From NCBI GenBank assembly GCA_016184305.1, contig JACPCX010000186.1:1-28608 (forward strand): DNA of 28,608 nt, given 5' to 3'. The notes under the pieces were generated by a model that made no database searches, was not told where the DNA came from, and saw only the letters and a list, made by a program, of their open reading frames with translations. This stretch comes from Candidatus Rokuibacteriota bacterium (lineage in GTDB: Bacteria; Methylomirabilota; Methylomirabilia; Rokubacteriales; CSP1-6). The position numbers were made by a program, and so were the translations under genes. Every line of letters begins with the position of its first letter. Within the stretch, counting starts at the first letter, position 1. Below are positions 2,804-28,330 of this stretch, one piece after another.

Positions 2804-4669
2804 TCAGCGGTACCAGGGGACAGCACCCCGCCAGAAGATGTGGCGCCCGTCGTGAGAGACGAGGCCTTCGGTCCGCCAGGCCGGCGCCGTGACGGTCCTG
2901 CCCTGGAGCACCAGGGGCGACCGTGATCCCGCCGGGTTGACGGCCTCGAGATCACCGGCTGGCCCCGCGCGGACCTCTGCCACCCGCGCGAGTTCTCGCC
3001 ACGCTCCGGCGATCCCACGCGCATCCACCCCGCCGCCGGCGCACGAGATCTCTCCGACCGGCGTCGCCGCCGGCACTCGGGCTCGGTGCAGATTGAAAGA
3101 GGTCTCGGGGAAGATGACGTCGATGAAGTACACGAGCTCGGTCTGGTGGCGGACATACGGTCCGAACCACGGCAGCGGATCGTGGCCCGGGCAGTCGGCC
3201 GACACCCGGAAATACGCGGGCCGTGACGGGAGGGCGTGCCAGCGCTCCGCGTGGTGCAGGAGCTCGAGCTTCGGCGCGACATACGAGTGGCGGAACTCCG
3301 CCAGCAGGGTGGTGGTCGCCACGACGTTCGCGGCGATCAGTCCCACCGCTCCGACGCCCAGGAGGGTCGTCCACACCGTGCCCCGGGGCTCCGGCGTCGA
3401 GTGCCCGCCGCCGATGCGCCTCCACGTCCAGCCGGCCACGGCGATCGTCAAGACGGCACTCAGGAGCGCGGGATAGGCATGCTGGAGGTTCTGCTGGAGC
3501 GTGTAGGAGAGGCCACGGGGTACGGACCGGCCCAGCGCCACGAGCCACGAGTACCCGCCGAGCACCGCGAGACCGGCCAGGACGCCGGGCGCGGCGGCAC
3601 GAAGCGGCCGGCGGGTCGCGAGCAGGCCCACGCTGCCGGTGAACAGGGGGAACACCCCGACCGCGTTGATGGCGAAGGCAGGGCCGGCCGGGGTCATCAC
3701 GCCGGCCAGGAACGCCCGGGATCCCGGGACGATGTCGTAAAGCGACGGGAACACCAAGCCGCCGAGCCAGACGCCGATCTGCTGCACCGCATACCGGCCC
3801 CCGAGGACGAAGGCCTCTGGCCCGGGCACCTGGGCGTCGGACCCCTCGAGCCCCGGAAAGCGACGGAGGAGGTCCACCACGCTGATCGCCAGATAGGTGG
3901 CGGCGATGGCACCGTGCCCACCGCTCATGAGCAGGCGCGCGCGCCGGCTGGAGGGGATCCCTGCCGCGCCCGCGGCTCGCTGCCCCGGGCGCGGCAGGGC
4001 CGAGATGGCGAGCAGGGCGCCCACCATGAGGGAGTAGAACGCCCCGAGCTCGTACGTGAAGGCGGCGGTGAGGGCGAGCAGGAGCGATGCGGAGCCCTTG
4101 GCACGCCGTCCGGTGTCCAGGTACGCGAGAAGTCGCTCCAGCGAACCGGTCAGCAGGACGGTGCAGAGGATGTAGGCGTTCGCGTGGAACCAGATCACGG
4201 TCTCGGCGCACAGGAGCAGGCTGGCGAAGAGGGCGGCGAGGAGGACCGGCGGCCAGAGCGCGCCGGGGAAGGCCCGCCGCCCCACGCGCAGCACCAGCAC
4301 GGCCTGCGCCGCATGGAGCGCCATCCCCACGGCTTGCCATAACCAGTACGACCTGCCGAACAGGATCTGTTCCGTCGCCAGCAGGAGATGGAAGAGCGGG
4401 CGGAACTCTGCGTGATCGCCGATGGATACCGAGCGATTCCAGGCCGGGGCGTGCGCGATCAGCTCCCCGGCGGTCCCGAACTGGGACGCCTCGTAGAGAA
4501 AGATCAGATGGTCCCACCTCGGGACGCTCCACAGACCCTCCCGGTAGATCGCGAGGGTGAAGGCGGCCACCAGCGTCTCCGCCACCATGGGCGCACGCGC
4601 GAGCGCCAAGAGCGTCGCGGGCGGCCGGCGCCACGGCGGCGAGAAGCGCGTCAGCGACCTGACACCCAT
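2804..4669 (-). CDS. multi-pass membrane protein, putative GT-C-fold glycosyltransferase with C-terminal soluble domain
   Basis: About 11-12 hydrophobic segments; acidic loop after TM1 (PRWDHLIFLYE), FRPLF, AETVIWFHA; clear paralog of 15516..17407. Start ATG 4669 (or 4588); the longer track ORF extends into the antisense transposase remnant. Confidence 0.7.
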   Translation of the reverse strand: MGVRSLTRFSPPWRRPPATLLALARAPMVAETLVAAFTLAIYREGLWSVPRWDHLIFLYEASQFGTAGELIAHAPAWNRSVSIGDHAEFRPLFHLLLATEQILFGRSYWLWQAVGMALHAAQAVLVLRVGRRAFPGALWPPVLLAALFASLLLCAETVIWFHANAYILCTVLLTGSLERLLAYLDTGRRAKGSASLLLALTAAFTYELGAFYSLMVGALLAISALPRPGQRAAGAAGIPSSRRARLLMSGGHGAIAATYLAISVVDLLRRFPGLEGSDAQVPGPEAFVLGGRYAVQQIGVWLGGLVFPSLYDIVPGSRAFLAGVMTPAGPAFAINAVGVFPLFTGSVGLLATRRPLRAAAPGVLAGLAVLGGYSWLVALGRSVPRGLSYTLQQNLQHAYPALLSAVLTIAVAGWTWRRIGGGHSTPEPRGTVWTTLLGVGAVGLIAANVVATTTLLAEFRHSYVAPKLELLHHAERWHALPSRPAYFRVSADCPGHDPLPWFGPYVRHQTELVYFIDVIFPETSFNLHRARVPAATPVGEISCAGGGVDARGIAGAWRELARVAEVRAGPAGDLEAVNPAGSRSPLVLQGRTVTAPAWRTEGLVSHDGRHIFWRGAVPWYR

Positions 4670-4683
4670 CCCCACCAGGATAC

Positions 4684-4950
4684 CCGCGCAACCCTGCGGC
4701 CGGCCAGCAATCGGGTACAGCTCGAGGGGCTCTGCCGGTATATGCTCCGCCCCCAATTCGCCCAGGACCGGCTCCACCTCCGGGCCGACGGGCGCGTGGT
4801 GGTGGTCACTCTCAAGACGGCTGGGAGTCAGCGACATAATGCCCCACCTCGCTATCGAGCATGCATGCGAGGCTGCTGGCGCTTCCCCGGCTGACACTGC
4901 GAGGGCTGGCCGACCTCGAGGTGCTGGCGAGGCACACGCGACTGCGGATC
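4684..4950 (+). mobile_element. IS91-family (Y2, rolling-circle) transposase remnant
   Basis: QLEGLCRYMLRPQFAQDRLHLRADGRVVVVTLKTA matches the IS91/ISCR-type motif LE.LCRY..RP..A.DRL....DG.V...LKT.W. Frameshifted continuation PHLAIE and VLARHTRLR resemble THLVFE and GVLAPHARLR. Confidence 0.75.
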
Positions 4951-5173: not shown

Positions 5174-8113
5174 ATGTCACGCGTGAGCGAGTGGGGCAGG
5201 CGGCGGCCCGACGCCGCGGCCGGCTGGGCCCTCGTCCTCCTCGGCTTCGGCACCCAGGCGCGCGCCTTCCTCCCCGGCCGGGTGCTCTCCCCGGCCGACG
5301 CCCTGGTGATGTTCGATCCGTGGAAGGCCCTCGCGCCGGGGGTCGAACCGGCGAATCCCGTGCTGACTGATGTGAGCCTCCTGTTTCACCCCTGGCTTGT
5401 GTGGGTAACCCGCGAAATCAGCCAGGGGCATCTGCCTCTCTGGAACCCCCAGGTTTTCACGGGCGCCCCGCTGCTCGCCAACCCGAACTTCGCCGTGCTC
5501 TTCCCCACGAACGCTCTCGCCTACCTGCTCCCCTTCGGGCTCGCCCTGGCTCTCGGGGCCGCCCTCAAGCTCCTGACGGCGGGGCTCGGGATGTACTGGT
5601 TCCTGCGGCTCCTCGCGCTGGGGCCTCTCGGCGCTTTCACGGGGGCGTTGGCCTTCATGCTCAGCGGACCGCTTGTCGTGTGGCTGCAGTATCCGTACGG
5701 CGGTGCGATCGCCCTGCTGCCGGTCCTCCTGGCGTTGACCGAGCGGCTGCGCCAGAGGCCGGGAGGCGGCCCCGTGGTGGGGCTCGCCTGTGCCGTGGTC
5801 CTCGACATCTTCGCGGGATACCCGCCCATCGGCCTCCTCGGCGCGCTCACCGCCGGCGCCTGGGCACTTGTGCGCGCGCACGGTGCTCCGGGTGGTCCGC
5901 GCTTCCTGCTCCGTTTCGCCGCCGGCATGGGCCTCGGAATCGCGCTCGCCGCCGTCCAGCTCCTGCCCTTCGTCGAGTACATGCGCGAGAGCGCGGTCTA
6001 CGCCTACCGGCTCGAGTGGAAGCCCGTGCTCTCTCTCCCGCCCCGGGCGGCCATCGTGTTCCTCATGCCGTACTACTACGGCGGCCCCCGGGATTTCTGG
6101 GGCCCGTGGAACTTCAACGAGATCACGACGTCAGTGGGGCTTCTGCCATGGGTCGCGCTCCCGGCGGCCCTCGTGGGCGCCTGGCGCCGGCCCGGGACGC
6201 GCTTCTTGGCCGCGCTGGCCGCGCTGGCGGCGGCCATCCTCTACGGCGTGCCGGGGCTGGCGCCGGCCCTTGCCACGCTGCCGGGCGTGTCCCTCGCGAT
6301 CAGCCTGCGCGTCGCCCCGCTGCTGACGCTGGCGCTGGGCGCCCTGTGCGGCATCGGAGTGGACGCCGTCCGGCGCGACGCGGGCGGATCGAGCCGCGCC
6401 GTGCGCTGGGCGCTGGCGGCTGCGCTGGCGGCGCTCGCGCTCCTCTCCCTGGCGAGCCTCCTCGACGACTACGCGACATCCATCCGCGCGGGGATGAAGC
6501 TCCCTCTGGCGCTCCAGTACGTGTGGTTCCTCGCGCTCTCGACGGGCCTGACCCTGCTGCTCCTGCGGGGGCCGGGTCCGGGCGCCGCGACTGCACGGCG
6601 GGCGCTGGGTCTCGTGGCGCTCCAGCTCGCGAGCACGCTGCCGCTGGCCATCGGCTACAACCCGGCGATGGAGTCGCGCTGGCTCTACCCATCCACTCCC
6701 GCCATCGAACACCTCAAGCGGGAGAGCGCGCGGGACCCGGGGCGCGTCCTGCTCCAGGCCAACCTCGGCATGCTCTACGGCCTCTCGGACCCCTCGGGCT
6801 ATGACGGCATGACGCCCCGCCGGTTCGAGCAGGTCGTCCGGCCGGGCGGAGGCCTCACGCTCCTGGGCAACGGCAGCCTCACGGTGGCGGACGTGTGGGC
6901 CTCGCCCGTGGTGGATCTCCTCGGGGTGCGCCGTGTGCTCGTGCCGCCGGGGATCACGGTCGCCGGCCGCGGGTACGTGCTCGAGTACGACGGCGCCGAT
7001 GCGCGCGTGTATCGCAACGACGGGGCGCTGCCCGGCGCCTTTGTCGTGCCCGTGGGTCGATGCCTCGGAGATGCGGCCGCGCTCGGGCTGATCGCGGCGC
7101 GGGCGGTGGACTTCCGCCGGGAGGTGCTGCTCGCCGGCTGCGAGCGGGCGCCGGAGGCCGCGCCGCGGGCGAAGGAGTGGAACGCGGCGATGCGGCGCGG
7201 CGAGGCGTCCCGCGTGGTGATCGAGGCGACCACGGACGCTCCGGCCTATCTCGTGCTCACCGACACCTGGTACCCGGGATGGCGCGTCTCGGTGGACGGT
7301 GCCGAGCAGCCCATGCTCCGCGCCAACTACGCGTTCCGCGCGGTGCGGCTCGGGCCGGGCACGCACGAGGTGGCTTTCGAGTACCGGCCGGCCTCGGTCC
7401 GCATCGGTCTCGCCGTGAGCCTCGCGGCGGCGGCTGTCGCCGTCGGCCTCGTCCTGGGCTCGAGGCTCCGCGGGCTCCGCCGGCGGCAGTCCGGGGGGCA
7501 GCCGGAACCGCGTCGCCGCGCTGGCTGGGCGGTGCTGGCGCTGCTGCTCTCGGCCCTCGTTGCCGGTGCGTTCCTCCTGGGGTCGCCCCGCCCGACCCTG
7601 CCGCGAGCCCCCTTCGATTTCGAGGTGGTCCCCTCCACGGTGCGTGAGGGGGTGCCGGCGACGATCCGCGTCCGCCACAGGGGGCCCGGGCGTCTCGAAG
7701 GGTCTCGGCCCCTCGACCTGTACATCGCCGCGCTCCAGGGATGGGAGAGCGCCGTGTTCCTCACCCCTGGAGGCGCCTGGTCCGCCCGGCCCGAGCCGTA
7801 TCGGCGAGCGCCATCCCTCGCGGGCCTCGCGCCCGTCGAGGCGCCCTGGCCCTGGGAGCGCACGGTGGGCTCGCTCCGCCTCGCGCTGATCGTCGTCGAG
7901 GCCGGGGCCGATCCGCGCTCGCGCTCGCACTGGCTCTTCCAGCCCGTGCTCGTGGTGGTGGATCTCAAGGCGTCGATGACGAGCGATTTCGGACGAGCGC
8001 GGGCGGCGGCTGTTCTGGGTATGGTGGGCCTCCTGACGATCGGCGCGGTGCTGGTCGTCGCGCGGTGCGCGCGGGCGCTCTCGCCCCCGTCGGAGCCGCG
8101 ATGCGACGCGTGA
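5174..8113 (+). CDS. YfhO-family membrane protein (GT-C glycosyltransferase) with extra C-terminal TM-flanked domain
   Basis: LPLWNPQVFTGAPLLANP, AAVQLLPFVEY, GYDG and C-terminal TDTWYPGWRVSVDG...RANYAFRAVRLGPGTHEVAFEYRP are YfhO hallmarks. Start ATG 5174 is supported by N-terminal similarity to the paralog at 8101. Confidence 0.88.
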   Translation: MSRVSEWGRRRPDAAAGWALVLLGFGTQARAFLPGRVLSPADALVMFDPWKALAPGVEPANPVLTDVSLLFHPWLVWVTREISQGHLPLWNPQVFTGAPLLANPNFAVLFPTNALAYLLPFGLALALGAALKLLTAGLGMYWFLRLLALGPLGAFTGALAFMLSGPLVVWLQYPYGGAIALLPVLLALTERLRQRPGGGPVVGLACAVVLDIFAGYPPIGLLGALTAGAWALVRAHGAPGGPRFLLRFAAGMGLGIALAAVQLLPFVEYMRESAVYAYRLEWKPVLSLPPRAAIVFLMPYYYGGPRDFWGPWNFNEITTSVGLLPWVALPAALVGAWRRPGTRFLAALAALAAAILYGVPGLAPALATLPGVSLAISLRVAPLLTLALGALCGIGVDAVRRDAGGSSRAVRWALAAALAALALLSLASLLDDYATSIRAGMKLPLALQYVWFLALSTGLTLLLLRGPGPGAATARRALGLVALQLASTLPLAIGYNPAMESRWLYPSTPAIEHLKRESARDPGRVLLQANLGMLYGLSDPSGYDGMTPRRFEQVVRPGGGLTLLGNGSLTVADVWASPVVDLLGVRRVLVPPGITVAGRGYVLEYDGADARVYRNDGALPGAFVVPVGRCLGDAAALGLIAARAVDFRREVLLAGCERAPEAAPRAKEWNAAMRRGEASRVVIEATTDAPAYLVLTDTWYPGWRVSVDGAEQPMLRANYAFRAVRLGPGTHEVAFEYRPASVRIGLAVSLAAAAVAVGLVLGSRLRGLRRRQSGGQPEPRRRAGWAVLALLLSALVAGAFLLGSPRPTLPRAPFDFEVVPSTVREGVPATIRVRHRGPGRLEGSRPLDLYIAALQGWESAVFLTPGGAWSARPEPYRRAPSLAGLAPVEAPWPWERTVGSLRLALIVVEAGADPRSRSHWLFQPVLVVVDLKASMTSDFGRARAAAVLGMVGLLTIGAVLVVARCARALSPPSEPRCDA

Positions 8114-9095: not shown

Positions 9096-9596
9096 ATGTT
9101 CACGGGGGCGATGCGATCGCTGTATGGCGAGGAGCGAGAGCGGGGCTTCACCTTGGTCGAGCTACTGATCGTGATCCTGATCGTGGGGATCCTGGCGGCA
9201 GTGGCCGTGCCGCTCTACCTGGGCTACACGCAGGACGCCAGGAGCGCCGAGGGCAAAGCGCTGGCTGGCTCGGCCATGACTGCGCTGCAGGGCTGCGTGC
9301 AGGCGCGGGGCGGGGGGGGCAGCTGCACCCGGGCGGACGTCGCAGGGCGGATCGGGGTGAGCTCGGCGACCGGGTTGACGGGCGATACCCGCTGGACGGT
9401 GGGGACGGCGAGCCTGACGGTGAGCACGGCAGCGGTGCCCACCTTCTCGGGGACGATCAACGTCTTTGGGGTGGCGGCGCGGGACACGAACAACATCGCG
9501 ATGGCGATGTACCCGGGGACCTGGGGTGTGGAACTGAGATGCACGACGACCTCGCTGACGCCGCCACCCACCAGCACGTCTAACGAGCCCTGCTAG
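9096..9596 (+). CDS. pilA: type IV pilin (probable major pilin)
   Basis: Class III signal MFTGAMRSLYGEERERG|FTLVELLIVILIVGILAAVAVPLY (G-1, F1, E5); GGGAGG RBS at 9082-9087; 166 aa with four Cys; own sigma54 promoter and 3' hairpin. Confidence 0.93.
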   Translation: MFTGAMRSLYGEERERGFTLVELLIVILIVGILAAVAVPLYLGYTQDARSAEGKALAGSAMTALQGCVQARGGGGSCTRADVAGRIGVSSATGLTGDTRWTVGTASLTVSTAAVPTFSGTINVFGVAARDTNNIAMAMYPGTWGVELRCTTTSLTPPPTSTSNEPC

Positions 9597-9757: not shown

Positions 9758-11797
9758 GTGGCATCCTGGGACCTATTGCATCGCTGCAGCCACGGGTGTG
9801 ATCCTGCGGTGCTCGGAAAGCTCGCTGCCCCGGCCCGCCTCGACGGGCGCGGTTTCCTGGTAGCCCGACCGTCCCCCGGCAGCACGGGGGCTCGTCCCTT
9901 CCCTCTCTGGAGCGATGCTCTCCTCGTCGCTCTCGTCACCGTGGTCGCCTTCCTGCCGGGGATCTTTGGCGAGTTCGTCGGCTGGGACGACGACCGGAAC
10001 TACCTGGACCTCACCCCCTGGCGCGGCCTGGGGCTCCGCCAGCTCGCCTGGATGTTCACGGCGTTTCACATGGGGCATTACCACCCGCTCACCTGGGTGA
10101 CGCTCGGCGCCGACTACGTGATATGGGGCCTCAACCCCTTCGGCTTTCACCTCACGAGCCTGCTGCTCCACGGGGCCGCAGCCGTGACCTTCCTCCACAT
10201 CGCGCGGCGGCTGCTCGGGGCGGCGCTGCCCGCAGGCCCGGGCGGTCCCGCGCTCCGGGTCGGCGCCGTGGCGGCGGCGCTCCTGTTCGCGGTGCACCCG
10301 CTGCGGGTGGAGTCCGTCGTGTGGCTTTCCGAGCGGCGGGACGTGCTCTCCGGGCTCTTCTACCTGCTCACCGTCCTCGCCTATCTCAAGGCCGTCTCCG
10401 CGCGCTCGGAAGGCTCCGCGCCCAGCGCCTGGCGCTGGTACGGCGCCTCCATCGTCATCTTCGTGGCGGCGCTCCTCTCCAAGGGGCTGGTCGTGAGCCT
10501 GCCGGCCGTCCTCATGATCCTGGACGTCTATCCGCTGAGGCGGCTCGGCGGGGCGGCCGGGTGGATGACGCCGGCTGCGCGGCGGATCTGGGCCGAGAAG
10601 ATCCCGTTCGTCCTGCTCGGCCTGGCGGGCACCGTCGTGGCGTTCCTCGCCCGCGCGCCGCTTCAGTCTGCCGTCGGGCTCAAGGACTTCGGCATCGCCG
10701 AGCGCGCCGCGTTGTCGCTCTACGGCTACGCGTTCTACCTGAGGAAGATGCTCCTCCCCTACGGCCTCTCGCCGCTCTACGAGATGGACCGGGGCTTCGA
10801 TCTCTTCGGCGCACCCGTGCGCTGGAGCGCGGCGGCGGTGCTCCTCCTGGCCGCCGTGGTGATGATCATGCGTCGGCGCTGGCCCGCGCTCGCTGCCGTG
10901 GCCGCTGCCTACGCCATCACGCTCCTGCCCGTGATCGGGGTGGTCCAGAGCGGCCCCCAGATCACCGCCGACCGCTACACCTATCTGGCCTGTCTCGGCT
11001 GGGCGCTGCTCGCCGGGGCGGCCGTGGCCTGGTGCGCCGAGCGGTGGATGTCCGGGGCGCCCCGGCGGGTGCTCTGGGGCGGGTCGCTCGCAGCCGCGAC
11101 TCTCGCCGTCGTCGTGCTCGTGGGCGTGACGGCGCGGCAGAGCCTGATCTGGTTCGACTCCCTCTCGCTCTGGACGCACGCCGTCGCCCTCGATCCATCC
11201 AGCGCCCGGGCTCGCACCGGGCTCGCCGCCGCCTACTTCGCGGCGGGGAAGCGCGAGGAGGCGCAGCGACAAATCGAGCAGGCGGTGAGGCTCTCCTCGC
11301 AGATGCCCGAGGCGCTCATGGGGCTGGCGGCGATGCTGAGCCTGTCGGGGCAGGCCGAGGAGGCTCTTTCATACGCGAGGGGCGCCGTGAGCCGGCGACC
11401 GCATGATTCCAACCTCCACCACCTCCTGGGCGAGCTGCTGCGCGTCGCGGGCAAGCGGGAGGAGGCCGTGGCCGAGTTCAGCGAGGCCATGCGCCTGGCG
11501 CCCGATTGGTCCGTGACCCGCTTTGTGATGGCGAGGACGCTCGCCGAGCTGGGGCGCACCCAGGAGGCTCTCGCAACTCTCGCCGAGGCCGATCGGCTCG
11601 CCCAGTCCCAGAACCCGGCGGACCCCGAGCGCGACCGCTACCAGGCGCTGGTGTACACCCGCACCGACCCTCAGCGCGCCATCGCCGCCTGGGACAGGTA
11701 TCTGGCCGCGCTCACCCGTGCTCAGACTCTCAGCCCCCAGCAAGCCGCGAAGGCGCTCGAGGCCCTCGGCGCGCTGGAAGATCTCCAGCGGAAGTAA
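9758..11797 (+). CDS. TMTC-like protein O-glycosyltransferase (GT-C membrane domain plus C-terminal TPRs), copy 1
   Basis: EFVGWDDDRNY, HYHPLTWVTLGADY, HPLRVESVVWLSERRDVL, ALLSK and ADRYTYL motifs, then TPR repeats (HAVALDPSSARARTGLA; FSEAMRLAPDW). Start codon uncertain and may be downstream. Confidence 0.85.
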   Translation: MASWDLLHRCSHGCDPAVLGKLAAPARLDGRGFLVARPSPGSTGARPFPLWSDALLVALVTVVAFLPGIFGEFVGWDDDRNYLDLTPWRGLGLRQLAWMFTAFHMGHYHPLTWVTLGADYVIWGLNPFGFHLTSLLLHGAAAVTFLHIARRLLGAALPAGPGGPALRVGAVAAALLFAVHPLRVESVVWLSERRDVLSGLFYLLTVLAYLKAVSARSEGSAPSAWRWYGASIVIFVAALLSKGLVVSLPAVLMILDVYPLRRLGGAAGWMTPAARRIWAEKIPFVLLGLAGTVVAFLARAPLQSAVGLKDFGIAERAALSLYGYAFYLRKMLLPYGLSPLYEMDRGFDLFGAPVRWSAAAVLLLAAVVMIMRRRWPALAAVAAAYAITLLPVIGVVQSGPQITADRYTYLACLGWALLAGAAVAWCAERWMSGAPRRVLWGGSLAAATLAVVVLVGVTARQSLIWFDSLSLWTHAVALDPSSARARTGLAAAYFAAGKREEAQRQIEQAVRLSSQMPEALMGLAAMLSLSGQAEEALSYARGAVSRRPHDSNLHHLLGELLRVAGKREEAVAEFSEAMRLAPDWSVTRFVMARTLAELGRTQEALATLAEADRLAQSQNPADPERDRYQALVYTRTDPQRAIAAWDRYLAALTRAQTLSPQQAAKALEALGALEDLQRK

Positions 11798-19754: not shown

Positions 19755-20465
19755 CTACGGCCTCCAGAAATACACCTCGCGCAGCGTCTGCAGCAGGTAG
19801 GCGGCGCCCCAGCGGAACATCTGGAGCTTGCGCTGCCCGCCGATGCGCGCGGGCTCGTCGGCGGGGATCTCGGACACCGTGAGCCGCTTCTTGGCGGCGC
19901 GGATGGAGAGGAGCGGCTCCACGCCGATCACGGTCCCCAGGAGCTTCTCCGGCGCATAGCCCTCGTCGCGGTCCAGCCCGAGGTCCCGGAAGAGCGTGGT
20001 CCGGTACGCGCGGAACATCACGAAGGCGTCGGTGTAGCGGCCGCCGTGGAGGAGGTTGATCAGCCGGGTGAACCCCCAGTTGCCGAGCGCCGTCAGGACG
20101 TCGTCGTCCTGGCTCCGCGCGGAGGCGAGGTAGCGCGAGGCGATGACCATGTCGGCGCCAGCGGCCATCGCGCGGACGAGATCGGGGATCGCCGAGGGCA
20201 GCGAGTTGCCGTCGGGGCTGAAGGTGACGACGATCTCACCGCGCACATGCGGGAAGGCCTCGACGTACGCGTTCCGGATGCCGGGCTTCTGCTGGACGAT
20301 CAGGTCGTAGCCGTGCTCCCTGGCGTACTCTTGCGTCCCGTCCGTGGAGCCGCCGTCCACGACCAGGATCTGGTCGCACCAGCCATGCTGGATCTGCGGC
20401 ATGATCTGGCGCATGCCCTCGATCTCGTTGTAGGTGGGGACGAGGAGCGTCACCGAGGGTCTCAT
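19755..20465 (-). CDS. GT2-family glycosyltransferase, DPM1-like (polyprenyl-phosphate sugar synthase)
   Basis: LLVPTYNE, VVDGGSTDGT, DMVIASRY, GNWGFT, YTDA...FRA, EIPADEPARIGG. Start ATG 20465. The DXD position reads FSPDGNS. Confidence 0.88.
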   Translation of the reverse strand: MRPSVTLLVPTYNEIEGMRQIMPQIQHGWCDQILVVDGGSTDGTQEYAREHGYDLIVQQKPGIRNAYVEAFPHVRGEIVVTFSPDGNSLPSAIPDLVRAMAAGADMVIASRYLASARSQDDDVLTALGNWGFTRLINLLHGGRYTDAFVMFRAYRTTLFRDLGLDRDEGYAPEKLLGTVIGVEPLLSIRAAKKRLTVSEIPADEPARIGGQRKLQMFRWGAAYLLQTLREVYFWRP

Positions 20466-20634: not shown

Positions 20635-21618
20635 TTGGACCTCCCCTTGCAACGTTCAGGCCTCGTGGACCCCGCGATGATGGCGCGGCTCTATCGCTCG
20701 GTCCGGCGCATTCGCCGGGTGGAGGAGGAGATCGCCCGCCTCTATCCCACCGATCGGATCAAGAGCCCGGTGCACCTGTCCATCGGCCAGGAGGCCGTGA
20801 GCGTCGGTCTCTGCGAGGCCCTCCGCCCCGACGACGTCGTCTTCGGCACCTACCGCGGCCACGCGCTCTACCTCGCCAAGGGCGGTGACCTCCGGCGGAT
20901 GATGGCGGAGCTGTACGGCAAGGCGACGGGTTGCGCCCGGGGCAAGGGCGGCTCCATGCACCTCATCGACGTGGCTCACGGTGTCATGGGCGCCTCCGCG
21001 GTGGTCGGGAGCACGATCCCCCAGGCGGTGGGCTACGCCTACGCGTGCAAGGTGAGGGGCCAGGAGGCCCTGGTGGCCAGCGTCTTCGGCGACGGGGCCG
21101 TGGAGGAGGGCGTCTTCCACGAGAGCATCCAGTTCGCGGTGCTCAAGGCCCTCCCCGTTCTGTTCGTCTGCGAGAACAACTTCTACGCGATCCACACCCC
21201 GCTGGCCGAGCGCCAGCCCTTCGACAATATCTGCGAGCGCGCGCGGAGCTACGGCCTGCCCGCCGCGCGCCTCGAGGCCGATGACGTCCTCCGCGTCCAC
21301 GAGCGCATGGCGGAGGCGGTGCACCACATCCGGCGCCAGAGGGCCGGGCCGCAATTCCTCGAGTGCCGGACCTATCGCTGGCGGGAGCACGTGGGGCCCG
21401 GCGAGGACTTCGACCTGGGCTATCGGTCGCGCGAGGAGGCCGCGGCCTGGATGGAGCGGGACTCCTGCGTCCGGCTGGGCGCGCTCCTCGACGAGCCCGC
21501 GCGCGCGCGCATCGATGCCGCGATCGAGGCCGAGATCGAGGACGCCGTACGCTTCGCCGAGGCGAGCCCCTTCCCGGGACCGGAGGAGCTGCACGCCGAC
21601 CTGTTCAGGGAGGCCTGA
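20635..21618 (+). CDS. TPP-dependent dehydrogenase E1 alpha-like subunit (sugar-pathway associated)
   Basis: HLSIGQEA, TYRGH, GKGGSMH, TPP motif GDGAVEEGVFHES...CENN, TYRWREHVG. Start TTG 20635 or ATG 20677. Confidence 0.92.
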   Translation: MDLPLQRSGLVDPAMMARLYRSVRRIRRVEEEIARLYPTDRIKSPVHLSIGQEAVSVGLCEALRPDDVVFGTYRGHALYLAKGGDLRRMMAELYGKATGCARGKGGSMHLIDVAHGVMGASAVVGSTIPQAVGYAYACKVRGQEALVASVFGDGAVEEGVFHESIQFAVLKALPVLFVCENNFYAIHTPLAERQPFDNICERARSYGLPAARLEADDVLRVHERMAEAVHHIRRQRAGPQFLECRTYRWREHVGPGEDFDLGYRSREEAAAWMERDSCVRLGALLDEPARARIDAAIEAEIEDAVRFAEASPFPGPEELHADLFREA

Positions 21619-21621
21619 GCC

Positions 21622-22686
21622 GTGGAGCGCAGGCTCACCTACGCCGAGGCGATCCGCGAGGCCACGCTCCAGGAGATGGACCGCGACCCGTCGGTCGTGG
21701 TCATGGGGCTCGGCGTCGAGGACCCGAAGCCCATCTACGGCACGACGCGGGGACTCGCCGAGCGCTTCGGCGCGGATCGCGTGTTCAACACCCCGCTCGC
21801 CGAGGAGGGGATGACGGGCGTGGCCATCGGGGCGGCGCTGGCGGGCTTGCGCCCCATCCACGTGCATATCCGGATGGACTTCGTGCTGCTCGCCATGAAT
21901 CAGCTCGTCAACATCGCCGCCAAGAGCCGCTACATGTCCGGCGGGGCCGTGTCGGTGCCCATCGTCGTGCGCTCGATCATCGGGAAGAGCTGGGGGCAGG
22001 GGGCGCAGCATTCCCAGGGGCTCCACGCGCTCTTCATGCACATCCCGGGCCTCAAGGTCGTGGCGCCCTCGACGCCCTACGATGCCAAGGGCACGCTGAT
22101 CCAGAGCATCCGCGACGACAACCCCGTCATGTTCGTGGAGCACCGGCTCCTCCATGGCGTGACGGGGCCCGTGCCCGAGATCCCGTACACGGTGCCATTC
22201 GGGCGGGCCCGGGTGCTGGCCGAGGGCGACGACGTGACCATCGTCGGGATCTCCCACATGGCCATCGAGGCGCTTCGCGCGCGCGCGCACCTGGAGCGCG
22301 CGGGCATCGGGGCCGAGGTGATCGATCCCGTGTCCCTGAGCCCGCTCGACATGGACAGCATCGAGGTCTCGCTGCGGAAGACCGGACGCCTCCTCGTGGT
22401 GGACTGCGGGTGGACCACCTGCGGCGCCTCGGCCGAGATCGCGGTCCAGAGCATGGAGCGGCTCCAGGGGGCGCGCGATCTCCGCATCCGCCGGCTCGGG
22501 TTCGCCCCCGTGGCCTGTCCGACGACCAGGCCGCTGGAGGATCTCTTCTACCCCGACGCGCGGCGCATCGCCTCGGCCGCCTATGCCCTCGTCCACGACA
22601 AGCCCGAGCTGTGGGAGCCGCCGGAGGCGTCGGACGAGGCTGGCGCTCCCGGGCCGGCGGACATCGAGTTCAAGGGGCCCTTCTGA
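21622..22686 (+). CDS. TPP-dependent dehydrogenase E1 beta-like subunit (transketolase C-terminal domains)
   Basis: LTYAEAIREA, RVFNTPLAEEGMTGVAIGAA, GQGAQHSQ, PGLKVVAPSTPYDAKG, DNPVMFVEHRLL, KTGRLLVVD. Confidence 0.92.
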   Translation: MERRLTYAEAIREATLQEMDRDPSVVVMGLGVEDPKPIYGTTRGLAERFGADRVFNTPLAEEGMTGVAIGAALAGLRPIHVHIRMDFVLLAMNQLVNIAAKSRYMSGGAVSVPIVVRSIIGKSWGQGAQHSQGLHALFMHIPGLKVVAPSTPYDAKGTLIQSIRDDNPVMFVEHRLLHGVTGPVPEIPYTVPFGRARVLAEGDDVTIVGISHMAIEALRARAHLERAGIGAEVIDPVSLSPLDMDSIEVSLRKTGRLLVVDCGWTTCGASAEIAVQSMERLQGARDLRIRRLGFAPVACPTTRPLEDLFYPDARRIASAAYALVHDKPELWEPPEASDEAGAPGPADIEFKGPF

Positions 22687-22687: not shown

Positions 22688-23887
22688 ATGGCGCTGCGCT
22701 ACCGGCTGGCGGACGGCACCATCGACCGGCACGACGTCGAGCTGCTCATCGAGTGGCTCAAGACCGACCCGTGGCTCACGATGGGCCCGCTCACGGAGGA
22801 GTTCGAGGGGCGCTGGACGCGCTGGCTGGGCGTGCCGCACGCGGCCTTCGTCAACTCGGGCTCCTCGGCCAATCTCCTCATGTACTACGCCGCCCTCTGC
22901 TCGGGCCGGCTGCGGAATCTGCGCGTGGTCGTGCCGGCCGTCTCCTGGGCGACGACCGTGGCGCCGGCGCTCCAACTCGGCTTCGAGCCGATCATGTGCG
23001 AGGCGGACCGTGACACCTTCGGCCTCGATCCGGCGCACCTCGAGGCTCTCTGCAAGGCGCATGATCCCGCGGCGGTGATCCTCGTCCACGTCCTCGGCGT
23101 GCCCGTGGACCTGGAGCCGATCATGCGCCTCAAGGAGCGCTACGGGTTCCTCCTGATGGAGGACTGCTGCGCCGCCACGGGCTCCCGCTACGATGGGCGC
23201 CCGGTGGGCACGTTCGGCGAGATGAGCGCGTTCTCGTTCTACTTCGGCCACCACCTCTCCACCATCGAGGGCGGCATGGTCTGCACCGGGGACGAGGCGC
23301 TCCACGACATCCTCCTGCAGATCCGCAGCCACGGCTGGCCCAAGAACCTCTCGCCGGAGAAGGAGGCGCTGCAGGCGCGGAAGCACGGGGTCCTCGAGTT
23401 CAACCGCCGCTTCACCTTCTACTATCCCGGCTTCAACGTCCGCTCCACCGATCTCAACGCGCGCATCGGCCTCAGCCAGCTGGCCCGGGCGGACCGCGTC
23501 GTCGCCCGTCGCATCGACAATCACGCGGCCTACCTGTCGCGCTTCGCCGGGGCCCGCGGCTTCACGTGCCAGCGGAACCCGCGGGCGACCATCTGCAGCA
23601 TCTCGTTCGTGGCGCTGGCCGCCTCGCTCGAGCACCGGGACCGGATCGGACGGGCGCTGGAGGCCCACGGCATCGAGACGCGCCCGCTGGGCGGGGGGAA
23701 CATGTCGCGCCAGCCGTTCTGGGTGGAGCGCTACGGCGCGCAGCCCTTCCCGGTGGCCGACGAGATCCACGAGCGGAGCTTCATGCTACCGAACCATCCG
23801 GGGCTCACCGTGGACGACATCGACCGCATCGCCGACGTCGTCCTGGCCGTGCCGGGGTCAGGTCTTGCAATCCAACATTTGTCGTAA
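22688..23887 (+). CDS. DegT/DnrJ-fold PLP enzyme, ColD-type NDP-4-keto-6-deoxy-sugar 3-dehydratase
   Basis: FVNSGSSANL, VPAVSWATT, EDCC; SFYFGHHLSTIEGG has His where aminotransferases have the Schiff-base Lys; RSHGW and PGFNVR as in ColD. ATG 22688. Confidence 0.85.
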   Translation: MALRYRLADGTIDRHDVELLIEWLKTDPWLTMGPLTEEFEGRWTRWLGVPHAAFVNSGSSANLLMYYAALCSGRLRNLRVVVPAVSWATTVAPALQLGFEPIMCEADRDTFGLDPAHLEALCKAHDPAAVILVHVLGVPVDLEPIMRLKERYGFLLMEDCCAATGSRYDGRPVGTFGEMSAFSFYFGHHLSTIEGGMVCTGDEALHDILLQIRSHGWPKNLSPEKEALQARKHGVLEFNRRFTFYYPGFNVRSTDLNARIGLSQLARADRVVARRIDNHAAYLSRFAGARGFTCQRNPRATICSISFVALAASLEHRDRIGRALEAHGIETRPLGGGNMSRQPFWVERYGAQPFPVADEIHERSFMLPNHPGLTVDDIDRIADVVLAVPGSGLAIQHLS

Positions 23888-23907
23888 TGCAAGACCTGAC
23901 CCCGGCA
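23850..23907. repeat. REP/REPIN-like perfect inverted repeat, copy 1
   Basis: TGCCGGGGTCAGGTCTTGCA (23850-23869), 18-nt spacer, TGCAAGACCTGACCCCGGCA (23888-23907). Confidence 0.9.
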
Positions 23908-24839
23908 TGAGGATCCTGGTCACGGGCGGGGCAGGATATATCGGCGCGGTGCTGGTGCCGCTGCTTCTCCGCGAGGGCCATGAGGTCACCGTCATCGACA
24001 GCTTCATGTACGGACAGGCCTCGCTGCTCGATTGCTGCCACGAGCCGCGCCTCACCATCGTCCGTGGTGATGCCAGGGACCGGACGCTGGTGGCCGAGCA
24101 CCTGCGCGAGGCGGAGGCGATCCTGCCGCTGGCCTGTCTCACGGGCGCGCCGGCCTGCGACCGTGATCCGGTGGCCGCGCGCACGGTGAACCTAGAGGCC
24201 GTCCTGATGATCCTCGAGATGAAGCGCGCCGAGCAGCGGATGATCTTCCCCAACACGAACAGCGGCTACGGGGTCGGCGAGCGGGATGTCTTCTGCACCG
24301 AGGAGACTCCGCTCCAACCGGTGTCCCTCTACGGCCGGCTCAAGGTCGAGGCCGAGCGCGCGGTGCTGGCGGCGCCCAGCACCATCGCTCTCCGGCTGGC
24401 GACGGTGTTCGGCGTGAGCCCCCGCATGCGGCTGGACCTGCTGGTGAACGACTTCACGTACCGCGCCGTCACCGACGGGTTCGTGGTCCTCTTCGAGGGG
24501 AACTTCAAGCGCAACTACGTCCACGTCCGGGACGTGGCCCGCGCCGTCAGCCATTGCCTCGGCCACTGGGAACGCATGCGCGGGCAAGCCTACAACGTGG
24601 GGCTCAGCGAGGCGAACCTGTCCAAGCGCGAATTGTGCGAGGCCATCCGCAAGCAGGTGCCGCGCTTCTCCTGGCAGGAGGCCGCCGTGGGCCGGGACCC
24701 GGACCAGCGCAACTACATCGTGAGCAACGCGAAGATCGAGGCCACAGGCTTCCGGGCCGAGGTGTCCCTCGAGGCCGGCATCGCGGAGCTGATCAAGGGC
24801 TACCAGGTGGTCCGCCGCCAGGGCTACGCCAATGTCTGA
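23907..24839 (+). CDS. NAD-dependent epimerase/dehydratase/reductase (extended SDR)
   Basis: MRILVTGGAGYIG, catalytic YGRLK (YxxxK), LRLATVFGVSPRMRLDLLVNDF, RNYVHVRDVA, YNVG. Confidence 0.92.
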   Translation: MRILVTGGAGYIGAVLVPLLLREGHEVTVIDSFMYGQASLLDCCHEPRLTIVRGDARDRTLVAEHLREAEAILPLACLTGAPACDRDPVAARTVNLEAVLMILEMKRAEQRMIFPNTNSGYGVGERDVFCTEETPLQPVSLYGRLKVEAERAVLAAPSTIALRLATVFGVSPRMRLDLLVNDFTYRAVTDGFVVLFEGNFKRNYVHVRDVARAVSHCLGHWERMRGQAYNVGLSEANLSKRELCEAIRKQVPRFSWQEAAVGRDPDQRNYIVSNAKIEATGFRAEVSLEAGIAELIKGYQVVRRQGYANV

Positions 24840-26304
24840 TCGGGGCCGCCTCGACCTGGTGCTCGTCCAGCCCGGCAGCCGCATGGAGGTGTACCAGCGC
24901 CTCGGCTCGACGCTGACCGCCATCGAGCCGCCCGTGTGGGCGGGACTCATGGCGACCTTCGCGCGCGCCCGGGGCTACTTGGTGGAGATCGTGGACGCCG
25001 AGGCCGACGATCTCGCGCCCGCCGAGGCGGCCGGGCGGATCGCGGACCTCGGGCCGCGGCTGGCCGTCGTCGTGGTCTTCGGCCACCAGCCGTCGGCCTC
25101 TACTCAGACCATGCCGGCGGCCGGCGCCGTCTGCGCCGCGCTCCGGCAGCGCGCGCCCGGCATTCCGACCCTCCTCGTTGGCGGGCACGTCTCGGCGCTC
25201 CCCGAGCGCACGCTCAGGGACGAGGCATGCGACTTCGTGTGCCAGGGCGAGGGGCCGCACACGATCGTGGGCCTGCTCGAGGCGCTGAGCTCCGGCGGCG
25301 GCCACGACCGGGTCCCGGGGCTCTGGTGGCTGGACGGCGGCGAGATCCGCTCCACGCCCCCGGCCCCGCTCCTGGACAACCTGGACCGCGACCTGCCGCG
25401 GATGGCGTGGGACCTCCTGCCCGTGCCGAAGTATCGGGCCCATAACTGGCACTGCTTCGGCGCCCTCGACCGGCGCCAGCCCTACGCCTCGATCTACACG
25501 AGCCTCGGCTGCCCCTTCAAGTGCACGTTCTGCTGCATCAACTCGCCCTTTGGCAAGCCCGGCTACCGCTACCGCGGTGCCGGCAGCGTCATCGAGGAGA
25601 TCGACCTGCTGGTCTCGAAGTACGGCGTGCGGAACATCAAGATCCTGGACGAGATGTTCGTGCTCAACTACCAGCACGTGGAGAGCGTCTGCGACCGGAT
25701 CATCGAGCGCGGGCACGACCTGAACATCTGGGCCTATGCCCGCGTGGACACCGTGAAGGAGCGCATCCTCGACCGGCTCAAGCGCGCGGGGATCAACTGG
25801 CTGGCGCTGGGGATCGAGTCCGGCAGCCAGCATGTCCGCGACGGCGCGCTCAAGAAGTTCGGGCACGCCGACATCGCCGCCACGGTCCGCGCCATCCAGG
25901 CCGCCGGGATCAACGTCATCGGCAACTACATCTTCGGCCTCCCGGACGACGACCACGACACGATGCAGGCCACGCTGGACCTGGCCTGCGAGCTCAACTG
26001 CGAGTTCGCCAACTTCTACTCGGCCATGGCCTATCCAGGCTCGCGGCTCTACGACATGGCGCTCGAGGAAGGGTGGCCGCTGCCCGCGACCTGGAGCGGC
26101 TACTCGCAGCACTCGGTGGACACGCTGCCGCTGCCGACGAAGTTCGTCTCGGCGGCCGACGTCCTGCGCTTCCGCGACCGCGCTTTCGAGATCTACTTCA
26201 ACCGGCCGGAGTACCTGCGGATGGTGGAGCGGAAGTTCGGCCCCGGGACCGTCGCGCATGTGCGCGAGATGGCAAGCCACCGCCTCGATCGCACGCATGC
26301 GTAG
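24832..26304 (+). CDS. cobalamin-binding radical SAM protein (class B methyltransferase-like)
   Basis: N-terminal B12-binding domain (EPPVWAGLMA, GGHVSALPE, GEG); CPFKCTFC (CxxxCxxC); GIESGS; YIFGLP. Confidence 0.92.
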   Translation: MSDRGRLDLVLVQPGSRMEVYQRLGSTLTAIEPPVWAGLMATFARARGYLVEIVDAEADDLAPAEAAGRIADLGPRLAVVVVFGHQPSASTQTMPAAGAVCAALRQRAPGIPTLLVGGHVSALPERTLRDEACDFVCQGEGPHTIVGLLEALSSGGGHDRVPGLWWLDGGEIRSTPPAPLLDNLDRDLPRMAWDLLPVPKYRAHNWHCFGALDRRQPYASIYTSLGCPFKCTFCCINSPFGKPGYRYRGAGSVIEEIDLLVSKYGVRNIKILDEMFVLNYQHVESVCDRIIERGHDLNIWAYARVDTVKERILDRLKRAGINWLALGIESGSQHVRDGALKKFGHADIAATVRAIQAAGINVIGNYIFGLPDDDHDTMQATLDLACELNCEFANFYSAMAYPGSRLYDMALEEGWPLPATWSGYSQHSVDTLPLPTKFVSAADVLRFRDRAFEIYFNRPEYLRMVERKFGPGTVAHVREMASHRLDRTHA

Positions 26305-26325
26305 CGAGGTGAGGAGGGGGAAGCG

Positions 26326-27333
26326 ATGATCATCAGCCGGACGCCGTTCCGCGTCTCGTTCTTCGGCGGGGGCACCGACTACCCGGTCTGGTTCCGCGAG
26401 CACGGCGGCGCGGTGCTGGCCACCACGATCAACAAGTACTGCTACATCTCCTGCCGCTACCTGCCGCCCTTCTTCAGCCACAAGAGCCGCGTGGTCTGGT
26501 CGCAGATCGAGCTGGTCCAGGAGCGCGAGGAGATCCAGCACCCGGTGGTGCGCGAGGCCCTGGGCGTCCTCGGCGTCACCGAAGGCATCGAGCTCCACCA
26601 CCAGGGCGACCTCCCGGCCCGCACGGGCCTCGGCTCCAGCAGCGCCTTCACCGTGGGCGTCCTCAACGCGCTACACGGGCTGCGCGGGGTCATGGCGGGC
26701 AAGGAGCGGCTCGCCCGCGAGGCGATCCTGATCGAGCAGGAGCGGCTGAAGGAGCATGTCGGCTGCCAGGACCAGGTCATCGCCGCCTACGGCGGCTTCA
26801 ACCGCGTCGACTTCTGGGGCGAGGGCCAGTTCCGCACCTCGCCCATCATGATCACCTGGGAGCGGCTCAACGAGCTCCAGGATCACCTGATGCTCTTCTT
26901 CACCGGGCTCTCGCGTACCGCCTCCGACATCGCCGCGGAGCAGGTCAGCGTGTCCCCGCAGAAGGCGCGCGAGCTGCGGGTGATGCATCAGATGGTGGAC
27001 GAGGCGGTCAACATCCTGAAAAGCCCGCACGGCCTCGGCGACTTCGGCAAGCTGCTGGACGAGGGCTGGCAGCTCAAGCGGAGCCTCACCGGCCGGATCT
27101 CCACGCCCTATATCGACGAGCTCTACGAGCGGGCGCGGCGGGGCGGCTGCACGGGCGGCAAGCTCATCGGCGCCGGCGGCGGCGGCTTCCTCCTGCTCTT
27201 CGCCCCGCCGGAGTCGCAAGCGGATGTCGCCGCGGCGCTCGGCGGGCTTCTCCAGGTGCCCTTCCGCTTCGAGTCCGTCGGCAGCCACGTGATCTTCTAC
27301 GAGCGGCCGGACCTGCCTCCCGGACGGCTGTAG
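26326..27333 (+). CDS. hddA: GHMP kinase, D-glycero-D-manno-heptose-7-phosphate kinase-like
   Basis: SRTPFRVSFFGGGTDYP, DLPARTGLGSSS, VGCQDQ..AAYGGFN, GGKLIGAGGGGFLL; GAGGAGG RBS. Confidence 0.88.
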   Translation: MIISRTPFRVSFFGGGTDYPVWFREHGGAVLATTINKYCYISCRYLPPFFSHKSRVVWSQIELVQEREEIQHPVVREALGVLGVTEGIELHHQGDLPARTGLGSSSAFTVGVLNALHGLRGVMAGKERLAREAILIEQERLKEHVGCQDQVIAAYGGFNRVDFWGEGQFRTSPIMITWERLNELQDHLMLFFTGLSRTASDIAAEQVSVSPQKARELRVMHQMVDEAVNILKSPHGLGDFGKLLDEGWQLKRSLTGRISTPYIDELYERARRGGCTGGKLIGAGGGGFLLLFAPPESQADVAAALGGLLQVPFRFESVGSHVIFYERPDLPPGRL

Positions 27334-27343
27334 GGCCCCCGCG

Positions 27344-28330
27344 GTGACGCGTCCGGAGCGGTCGTTCCAGCGAGTGCTCATCACCGGCATCGGCGGGTCC
27401 GGCGGGAGCTATCTCGCCGAGCACATCGTCGAGAGCCACCCCGAGGTCGAGGTGCACGGGCTCTCCCGCTGGCACAGCACCACGCGGAACAACCTCGCCC
27501 GCATCATCGAGCGGGTGACGGTGCACGAGGCCGACCTGCGCGACTTCGGCTCCACCTTCGCGGTGCTCCGCGAGGTGAGGCCCGAGGCGATCTTCCACCT
27601 GGCGGCCCACGCCAACGTGCGCGCATCGTTCGTGACGCCGAGCGCCGTGCTCGCCGACAACATCCTGGGCACGAATCACCTCCTCGAGGCCGTGCGGCTC
27701 CTGGGCCTCGACCCGACGATCCAGCTCTGCAGCACCTCCGAGGTGTACGGCGTGGTGGACCCCGCGCGGTTGCCCATCGACGAGGACACGCCCATGCGCC
27801 CGGCGAGCCCCTACGCCGTCTCCAAGGCGGCGCAGGACATGCTGGGCTGGAGCTACTTCCTGAGCTACGGGATGCGCATCATCCGCACGCGGATGTTCAC
27901 CTACCTCAACCCGCGGCGCGCCGATCTCTTCGCCACGGCCTTCGCGCGCCAGGTGGCGCGCATCGAGCGGGGGCTCCAGGCGGAACTGCTGCACGGCAAC
28001 CTGGACTCCGTCCGCACCATGCTCGACGTGCGGGACGCCATGCGCGCGTACTGGGAGGCGCTCGGCCACTGCGAGCCCGGGGAGGCCTACAATATCGGCG
28101 GCGCAACCACCATGACGGTGGGCGGCGTGCTGGCCCGCCTCGTGGCGCTGGCCGACACGCCGATCCCGACGCGGCTCGACCCGCGCCTCCTGCGCCCGGC
28201 GGATGTGACGCTGCAGATCCCGAACGTGGACAAGTTCGTCAAGGCCACGGGCTGGCAGCCGCGCCACCCCTTCGAGGAGAGCCTGGCGTATCTGCTCGCG
28301 CATTGGCGGGCCGAGGTCGCCCGCGAATAG
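27344..28330 (+). CDS. GDP-sugar 4,6-dehydratase, Gmd/DmhA-like (possibly GDP-manno-heptose dehydratase)
   Basis: VLITGIGGSGGSYLAE, IFHLAA, CSTSEVYG, ASPYAVSK, TRMFTYLNPRR, GNLDSVRTMLDVRDAMRAY, LRPADV. Confidence 0.85.
   Translation: MTRPERSFQRVLITGIGGSGGSYLAEHIVESHPEVEVHGLSRWHSTTRNNLARIIERVTVHEADLRDFGSTFAVLREVRPEAIFHLAAHANVRASFVTPSAVLADNILGTNHLLEAVRLLGLDPTIQLCSTSEVYGVVDPARLPIDEDTPMRPASPYAVSKAAQDMLGWSYFLSYGMRIIRTRMFTYLNPRRADLFATAFARQVARIERGLQAELLHGNLDSVRTMLDVRDAMRAYWEALGHCEPGEAYNIGGATTMTVGGVLARLVALADTPIPTRLDPRLLRPADVTLQIPNVDKFVKATGWQPRHPFEESLAYLLAHWRAEVARE

Follow-up and report, generated by a model that had tools for sequence, protein, structure and literature searches.

The window analysed here is a stretch of 28,608 nucleotides, the entire contig C218 of a Candidatus Rokuibacteriota genome (G000; 89% complete, 70% G+C), in which a type IV pilin gene lies among genes for membrane glycosyltransferases of the GT-C type. 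Genes were called from codon bias and family scans, and 21 window proteins were scanned. Groundwater metagenomes gave the best DNA matches for the window; no RNA data set was among the matches listed, which has no bearing on expression. Close homologues of its TMTC-like proteins carry the Candidatus Rokubacteria label. The genes are arranged in the order degP, an unnamed membrane protein, yfhO, a yfhO remnant, the type IV prepilin, two membrane+TPR genes, a PMT_2 gene, a frameshifted paralogue of the unnamed protein, a membrane protein of 768 amino acids (aa), a short family 2 glycosyltransferase (GT2), and a seven-gene sugar operon. The original prediction described a pilin glycosylation island with about eight GT-C genes; we found six intact and two broken ones. 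The TMTC-like pair and the PMT/ArnT-like gene it had named were recovered as the membrane+TPR pair and as a match to PF13231.

The prepilin (9096..9596, plus strand) scored above the cut-off of PF07963 and contains the processing site G/FTLVE. The head of the mature chain (149 aa) is 25% Ser+Thr, and its C-terminal disulfide loop, CTTTSLTPPPTSTSNEPC, has nine Ser/Thr among 18 residues. Both marks of a major pilin were found, namely the class III signal (G/F...E5) in the pilin and an assembly machine in the orthologous locus. Because the orthologue in G153 sits directly between pilT and the minor pilins, its sequence context suggests that this is likely the major pilin of a second pilus machine. 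The pilin clade occurred in 23 of the 251 genomes of the class, in seven genera of one family. Solitary extra copies lie far from TMTC or machine genes in two genomes (L203, G224:C82; L205, G226:C93), and two to three tandem copies were seen in G167, G171, and G174 (L186–L188). The extra and tandem copies possibly represent pilin variation. A database protein of 857 aa (P0043) combines the N-terminus of this pilin with a complete TMTC-like domain in one frame; its middle appears out of frame, and it is probably a frameshift and not a true fusion.

The two genes directly behind the pilin (9809..11797 and 11800..13761, both plus strand) encode TMTC/TfpW-like GT-C + TPR proteins with 56% mutual identity. 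Protein 1 was assigned by TPR families, invariant motifs, and an AlphaFold2 model (pLDDT 91.8). With the full model, Foldseek yielded solely TPR proteins among the matches listed, and the PDB sequence search returned TPR matches alone. The membrane part was resolved by a wide VIA search. It was aligned with AglB (Z = 19.8, root mean square deviation 6.7, 350 residues aligned), STT3B (Z = 19.2), Pmt2 (19.1; 4.6, 348), Pmt4 (18.4), and ArnT (17.4; 4.4, 324), and also with PglB and AftB. As modelled, TMTC-like protein 1 has the GT-C membrane fold. Residues D43 and D44, HPLR.E, K208, and DRY were invariant in the TMTC-like proteins; DD was found in 66 and [DE]RY in 65 of 72 sequences. The KE motif of human TMTCs was present in 7/72 and DW in 35/72. 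Loop 1 reads WDDD, which together with the C-terminal TPR gives the TfpW-type DDX + TPR layout. The LLFAVHP helix is recognizable as well (ALLFAVHPLRV vs SLLFAVHPIHT in human TMTC3). DUF1736 gave no match to the window proteins at E<=0.01, and the SHKSYRP position is occupied by HMGHYHP in loop 1. As the human KET and DUF1736 signatures are not kept, the proteins are called TMTC-like here and are not shown to be GT105 members.

The pilin had been described as a lone gene without machinery. This is correct within the window, but the overlapping contigs carry pilT, minor pilins, and PilB. At its end, C218 overlaps contig C175 over 99 identical bases; at its start, the overlap is with C154 and measures 48 bases. 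In the joined locus, pilT, a TMTC-like gene, and degP precede the window genes. These are followed by two more TMTC-like genes, small regulators, three minor pilins, PilM/N/O-like genes, and a secretin. The far end holds an ExeA-type ATPase, a TPR protein, PilB, PilC, and a two-component pair. The distance from the pilin is about 15 kb for pilT upstream, and about 29 kb for the minor pilins and 38 kb for PilB downstream. The two TMTC-like genes of the extended locus adjoin the minor pilins. The 3' end of a third TMTC-like gene falls into the window (28430..28608, left limit approximate, minus strand); it continues on C175 and gave an 85% match to the end of a G003 TMTC-like gene. The gmd–TMTC junction lies on single contigs in G002 and G003. 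In the orthologous locus of G003, PilT scored above its curated cut-off, and PilB, PilC, PilQ-like, and PilM-like all scored below. The window covers the middle part of a locus that serves a second type IV pilus, and its genes are linked to the pilus machine. An MSH-type identity of this machine, considered from gene order, was unsupported by the family scores; the secretin is nearer PilQ than MshL. The sole prepilin peptidase match of the genome belongs to the ordinary pilus cluster, which has two further TMTC-like genes ahead of pilD.

The locus was then compared among relatives. All three congeners had the same layout, partly across split contigs. Outside the genus, 19 genomes with the pilin clade were considered (one gave no pilin call, and G007 was taken from a separate comparison). 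A TMTC-like gene was located within 6 kb of the pilin in 13 of these, and machine genes within 25 kb in 10, with many contigs being short. In metagenome loci, TMTC was adjacent to the pilin in 10 of 14 cases, the GT-C neighbours being different. The conserved pilin linkage anticipated in the original prediction is thus seen in congeners, outside genomes, and metagenomes. A second set of genes behaved differently from the pilin and the TMTC-like genes: the GT2, the GDP-heptose-type operon, and the extra GT-Cs. Among the 19 outside genomes, G219 alone contained this cassette. The cassette GT2 (78–91% identity) and the 768-aa gene were restricted to this genus and G219 among the 251 genomes of the class, always at the pilin locus; neither was found in G001, whose assembly is split at that place. 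The extra GT-Cs vary between congeners. Four cassette-free core genomes (88–100% complete, 20–30 GT2 genes each) gave no HddA match, and the core therefore does not need heptose. Since the core persists without a local GT2, sugar operon, or HddA-like kinase, and the extra GT-Cs differ among congeners, the locus consists of a stable tier (pilin and TMTC-like genes) and a variable cassette insert that turns over. The single fixed relay of all GT-Cs, as originally proposed, does not agree with this structure.

The cassette tier supplies the other GT-C-type membrane proteins. The unnamed protein of 594 aa (2804..4669, minus strand, start at 4588 or 4669) was modelled by AlphaFold2 with a pLDDT of 95, and only GT-C enzymes appeared in the first 23 Foldseek rows. 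The VIA search placed AglB (Z = 17.7; 5.4, 355) and Pmt1 (17.5; 4.3, 344) on top, together with Pmt4 and AftB. According to the model, the protein has the GT-C membrane fold; for this protein and TMTC-like protein 1, the predicted fold was recovered in matches to solved GT-C enzymes. The profile of the unnamed family matched the TMTC-like family over the first six helices (96.4% probability, E = 1.3e-9). No Pfam membrane-domain match was obtained for any of the 56 members scanned (117 aligned), and no PDB sequence match was significant. An F5/8 domain was present in nine of these 56 relatives (E<=0.01) and a laminin-G domain in one. The other member of the predicted unnamed pair, a paralogue with 39% identity (15516..17320, minus strand), is frameshifted here and intact in G003, relative to which 16 bases are missing at 16117–16137. 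Contigs from four runs, all belonging to one study (one run possibly being the source), carried identical letters across this place, and the frameshift is therefore probably real in that population.

One of the two predicted YfhO genes stood as an intact gene of 979 aa (5174..8113, plus strand; PF09586, E = 5.5e-13, above cut-off), with orthologues at 71–97% in three congeners. The other proved to be a deletion remnant. Searched by tblastn with the intact G002 genes, the segment 8101..8915 (plus strand) was resolved as the remains of a second yfhO and the following 193-aa gene, with an internal deletion and frame changes. The remnant retains residues 1–33 and 662–768 of the intact 772-aa G002 gene, and the same remnant is found in G001. 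The PMT_2/ArnT-like GT-C (13769..15499, plus strand; PF13231, E = 3.2e-13, above cut-off) has DD after the first transmembrane helix (TM1) and orthologues at 79% in G002 and G003. The 768-aa protein (17397..19703, minus strand) carries SDD after TM1. It is a probable GT-C according to ESM Atlas structure rows, where its model (pLDDT 0.59) gave TM scores of 0.47–0.50 by query to PMT/PMT_2/TPR clusters. Its SDD aligned with the DD of the TMTC-like proteins in a weak match (8% probability; 39% vs the unnamed family).

The short GT2 (19755..20465, minus strand) is a candidate polyprenyl-phosphate sugar synthase and the sole cytoplasmic transferase at the locus. Its best solved relatives are DPM synthase (E = 3e-11) and ArnC, which accounted for four of four PDB matches; the AglJ and Dol-P-hexose transferase models scored below cut-off. 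This fits the lipid-monosaccharide donor route of the original prediction. Also in line with it, no match to the Wzx, Wzy, ABC exporter, or GT4 families was found among the 21 window proteins scanned; a Wzx-like gene lies elsewhere, on C133. D-arabinofuranose (D-Araf) donor genes (PPPRS/DprE1/DprE2) were likewise not found among these 21 proteins, the search being confined to the window.

The predicted nucleotide-sugar operon (20635 to 28330, plus strand) was confirmed. It begins with a thiamine pyrophosphate-dependent E1-alpha/E1-beta pair (20635..22686; PF00676, PF02779/PF02780), which presumably performs two-carbon branching of a 4-keto sugar, as in yersiniose-type pathways. The next gene encodes a ColD-like, pyridoxal phosphate (PLP)-dependent C3-dehydratase (22688..23887) with ColD/WbdK as best PDB matches (E = 2e-51), followed by E1 dehydrase. 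An aminotransferase function of this DegT-family gene was ruled out, because His is found where aminotransferases have Lys (GHHLSTIEGG vs SHHIATMEGG). The following short-chain dehydrogenase/reductase (SDR; 23907..24839) is a likely GDP-heptose C4-dehydrogenase. It matched 6vo6 with E = 7.5e-112 (next match 2e-21), a structure that we take to be Campylobacter Cj1427. Cj1427 has been described as a C4-dehydrogenase (PMC10680097). A B12-binding radical S-adenosylmethionine (SAM) enzyme (24832..26304; PF02310 + PF04055) may methylate or deoxygenate the sugar. It is followed by an HddA-like heptose-7-phosphate kinase of the GHMP type (26326..27333), for which NF049969 was the best model (E = 1e-38, below cut-off). 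The last gene, a second SDR (27344..28330), encodes a GDP-sugar C4-reductase or 4,6-dehydratase (RMD 2pk3, E = 8e-60; GDP-heptose 4,6-dehydratase 7us5, E = 4e-53). From these assignments, the product would be a heptose of the 3-deoxy or 3,6-dideoxy type, to which the E1 pair perhaps adds a branch or the radical SAM enzyme a methyl group. The cassette of G219 has an extra GmhA-like gene, recognized from a sequence motif. A second sugar locus of G000 (C133:1-35000) contains an E1 pair, two DegT-family genes, radical SAM enzymes, GmhA-/HldE-like genes, a PMT-like membrane protein, and the Wzx-like 12-TM gene, the last labelled from sequence reading. This locus is a possible source of heptose precursors or of a flippase.

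Other features surround these genes. In the degP/HtrA gene (1408–2565, minus strand), the GNSGG catalytic-serine stretch is missing near 1844; it is present in G001, G002, and G003. A second degP fragment on C154 has the same gap, and G002 has two degP copies. The gap reflects either a pseudogene or an assembly collapse. Between degP and the pilT module, small toxin–antitoxin or nucleotidyltransferase-type genes (DUF2442) are inserted (127–1122, minus strand; C154:20484-21100). G001 has transposase-like genes in the degP–pilT region and other small inserts within the sugar operon. These insertions mark the locus as an insertion hotspot. REP-like short intergenic palindromic repeats occur at 23850–23910, 28328–28470, and 2600–2650, one of them in the sugar operon and another at the end of the contig, with 19–29 matches on 12–15 contigs of the genome.

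The association of TMTC-like genes with pili extends beyond this locus. Of 61 relatives, 44 had TMTC-like membrane domains. In 19 of 24 scorable family members outside the genus, a copy lies within 3 kb of pilus genes, mostly as pilA–TMTC–pilD. The ordinary type IVa cluster of the family has one to three TMTC-like genes between pilA and pilD (G000 C120 end/C239 start; L027, L029, L033, L035). Independent insertions beside ordinary pilA comprise a GT2 in G014, a GT2 and YfhO in G033, and a GT2 with HddC/HddA/GmhA-like genes and a GT-C in G026. The G026 cassette (L046, G026:C4:7357-16000) is directly upstream of pilA–TMTC–pilD and consists of GT2, epimerase, HddC-, HddA-, and GmhA-like genes, transaldolase, FAD oxidoreductase, methyltransferase, and GT-C. 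A single clade of island TMTCs and ordinary pilA-linked TMTCs was rejected (approximately unbiased (AU) test, p = 7e-5), which implies that the TMTC–pilus linkage probably arose more than once. The trees were quick ones, the groups were named after the first tree had been viewed, and four long rows were left out of the AU test. Descent of the island TMTCs from the ordinary pilA-linked clade was rejected on these trees. Retention of TMTC in the pilus cluster of the sister family was also rejected; in four genomes the genes are separated by about 20 kb, in which no pilus machinery was called. Where TMTC follows ordinary pilA, the alleles were shorter, mostly without Cys, and had a higher Ser/Thr content (nominal p = 0.004 and 0.02), and TMTC presence tracked the short Cys-less pilA (13/15 vs 0/4). 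The clusters without TMTC (G023, G025, G029, G035) had longer, Cys-containing alleles. On independent pairs this covariation was not significant (two supported pairs, p = 0.5), and it serves as a lead only.

With the above results in hand, we propose the following mechanism. The TMTC/TfpW-like enzymes would attach the first sugar to Ser/Thr residues of the pilin, outside the inner membrane. The GT2 would load the cassette sugar on a lipid carrier, from which the inserted variable cassette would add a rare modified heptose on top of the first sugar. The glycan would mask the pilus from phages as its likely purpose, and such masking would account for the way in which the cassette genes turn over and decay. 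By analogy, the TfpW precedent and the phage protection by pilin glycans speak for this proposal. TfpW is a GT-C enzyme with DDX and a C-terminal TPR, located directly behind pilA and using a lipid-linked single sugar (10.1101/2020.04.19.049825), and pilin glycans protect Pseudomonas aeruginosa against phages (10.1101/150227). That the neighbouring TMTC-like enzymes glycosylate the pilin at all is, in our view, probable. For the two-step proposal, with TMTC-like enzymes starting the glycan on pilin Ser/Thr and the cassette capping or extending it with a modified heptose, we regard the chances as even. A further-reaching version is rather doubtful, namely that the glycan is built wholly outside the cytoplasm by successive GT-C families, with a deoxy, branched, or methylated heptose cap delivered as polyprenyl-monophosphate heptose. 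We know of no description of such a donor.

Several observations weigh against the two-step proposal. The Ser/Thr content of the pilin is equally high without the cassette, and six of the 19 outside genomes with the pilin clade, some on short contigs, have no TMTC nearby. The TfpW motif YX6PFX7P was found in 1/72 TMTC-like sequences. TMTC-like protein 1 has a close solo paralogue on C71, and the 17 kb around that copy contain no pilus gene. In the GT2, a canonical DxD is missing; FSPDG aligns with MDADL, and SPDGN is present in 94 of 120 homologues. A flippase search that covered the GtrA family (PF04138) gave no match in this genome, which is 89% complete; the control was found in 8/14. The assignment of the 768-aa protein as a GT-C is probable, with moderate support. 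The wider distribution points in the same direction: in relatives, 35 of 75 TMTC-like copies were pilus-linked and 40 were not within 3 kb of pilus genes; a pilus link was seen in none of four sister-family genomes examined (15 with matches). Among the best 80 matches across phyla, a pilin lies within 3 kb at 6 of 78 TMTC-like loci (4/22 in this phylum, 2/56 elsewhere). Since most copies and loci are not pilin-linked, the TMTC-like family is general, with the pilin being at most the target of some copies.

A general periplasmic O-glycosylation of proteins, with the pilin as one acceptor among many and its linkage reflecting shared regulation, would account for these unlinked copies (40/75 in the relatives, 72/78 in the wider set), for the eight TMTC-like copies in G000, and for the breadth of the YfhO-family PgtC2/PgfM1 enzymes, which glycosylate many Ser/Thr-rich regions (PMC12041528). 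We find it quite unlikely, because the placement directly behind pilin genes is repeated and phylogenetically separate, and because the presence of TMTC goes with different ordinary pilA alleles, albeit in two supported independent pairs only. The cassette raises another question, as it may decorate another glycan: distant similar GT2 modules, 42–43% relatives with DegT, radical SAM, and 6–7-TM genes in G186, G182, and G032 (labelled from reading of the sequences), lie in exopolysaccharide-like loci without a pilin. The TMTC-like core would then glycosylate the pilin, and the cassette would be a separate three-component module for lipopolysaccharide, exopolysaccharide, or another glycolipid, inserted by chance. 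YfhO homologues acting on teichoic acids too (PMC12041528), three-component GT-C systems decorating O-antigens (PMC11127046), and the absence of the cassette from 18 of the 19 outside genomes agree with this. Yet the close GT2 and the 768-aa gene are confined to the pilin locus, the pilin has cassette genes on either side, and a different heptose + GT2 + GT-C cassette adjoins pilA–TMTC in G026; we find the reading as a separate module rather unlikely.

The order of transfer can be questioned as well. Animal TMTCs put single unextended mannoses on specific domains (PMC11292533), and two TMTC-like genes adjoin the minor pilins, so that the GT-Cs could act in parallel, adding one sugar per site or per pilin (major, minor, PilX-like) and building no chain. 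Several cassette GT-Cs have no TPR domain, however, and carbohydrate-binding-type domains, which would be expected where the acceptor is a glycan, occur in relatives of the unnamed family; parallel action seems improbable to us. The TMTC-like proteins might even be non-catalytic accessory factors of an unglycosylated pilin, as could be read from the sparse KE (7/72) and DW (35/72) motifs and from the tracking of short Cys-less pilA (13/15 vs 0/4). The conservation of DD (66/72) and [DE]RY (65/72), the invariant loop residues, and the lipid-sugar synthases co-inserted at pilA loci speak against this, and we judge it very improbable. If the further-reaching version of the two-step proposal is true, cassette swapping would create pilus 'serotypes' against phages, and pilins would become the first substrates to be named for TMTC-like enzymes from bacteria. 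Should the heptose step prove correct, it would represent a new lipid-linked donor and a multi-enzyme route to bacterial protein glycans outside the membrane. The locus offers a small expressible candidate acceptor and a candidate donor synthase for the uncharacterised prokaryotic TMTC-like proteins. With the natural cassette contrast of genera g52 and g47 against g1 and G219, the function of the TMTC-like proteins is directly testable.

Judging by titles and abstract openings, we found no publication on bacterial TMTC-like proteins with pilin glycosylation, nor on pilus glycosylation in Rokubacteria, in a search that mostly did not cover subscription literature. Parts of the proposed system resemble known ones. 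Like the animal TMTC1–4 O-mannosyltransferases (GT105), the TMTC-like proteins combine an 11-TM-type GT-C with TPR and share the loop-1 DD, the LLFAVHP helix, a conserved Lys, and a late Arg-Tyr (PMC7801869); unlike these, they have no DUF1736 and do not keep KE and SHKSYRP as such. Prokaryotic TMTC homologues were noted as uncharacterised in the same source. The streptococcal Pgf/GtrB-PgtC2 systems also use a GT2 synthase and a YfhO-family GT-C outside the membrane on Ser/Thr-rich regions (PMC12041528). As described, they differ in being Gram-positive, with common sugars and broad acceptors, and without TMTC-like enzymes or pilin linkage. The PgfM2 model scored far below cut-off on the window proteins. 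A lipid-phosphate sugar synthase with a GT-C outside the cytoplasm is likewise the basis of GtrABC, ArnCEFT, and the Citrobacter pentofuranose systems (PMC11127046). In contrast with these three-component systems, no flippase was identified here, several GT-Cs accompany one synthase, and the predicted acceptor is a protein glycan.

The sugar operon parallels the capsular GDP-heptose pathways of Campylobacter jejuni, which include an HddA-like kinase, a C4-dehydrogenase, a PLP C3-dehydratase, and C4-reductase/4,6-dehydratase relatives (PMC10680097). There, heptose is transferred from GDP into the capsule in the cytoplasm, whereas a DPM-synthase-like GT2 and GT-Cs are found here, and the window adds the E1-alpha/beta pair and the B12 radical SAM enzyme. 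The closest architecture is that of the P. aeruginosa group IV TfpW system, a GT-C with DDX and C-terminal TPR that is about 650 aa long and encoded immediately downstream of pilA. It uses a lipid-linked single-sugar donor, and the donor genes cluster with pilA in some species (10.1101/2020.04.19.049825). The statement of the original prediction that no characterised system is comparable was therefore too strong. TfpW, as described, both starts and polymerises the glycan with one enzyme, whereas two TMTC-like genes are present here, with three more in the extended locus and four other intact GT-C-type genes. The TfpW route also proceeds through D-Araf (PRPP/DprE), and here a GT2 and a GDP-sugar take its place and the YX6PFX7P motif is absent. 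As this motif fails, we liken the locus to TfpW by architecture and position and do not file it as a member. By this analogy, the locus is likely a multi-enzyme elaboration of the TfpW type of pilin glycosylation, in which a core/cassette structure has newly become visible and a heptose donor is predicted.

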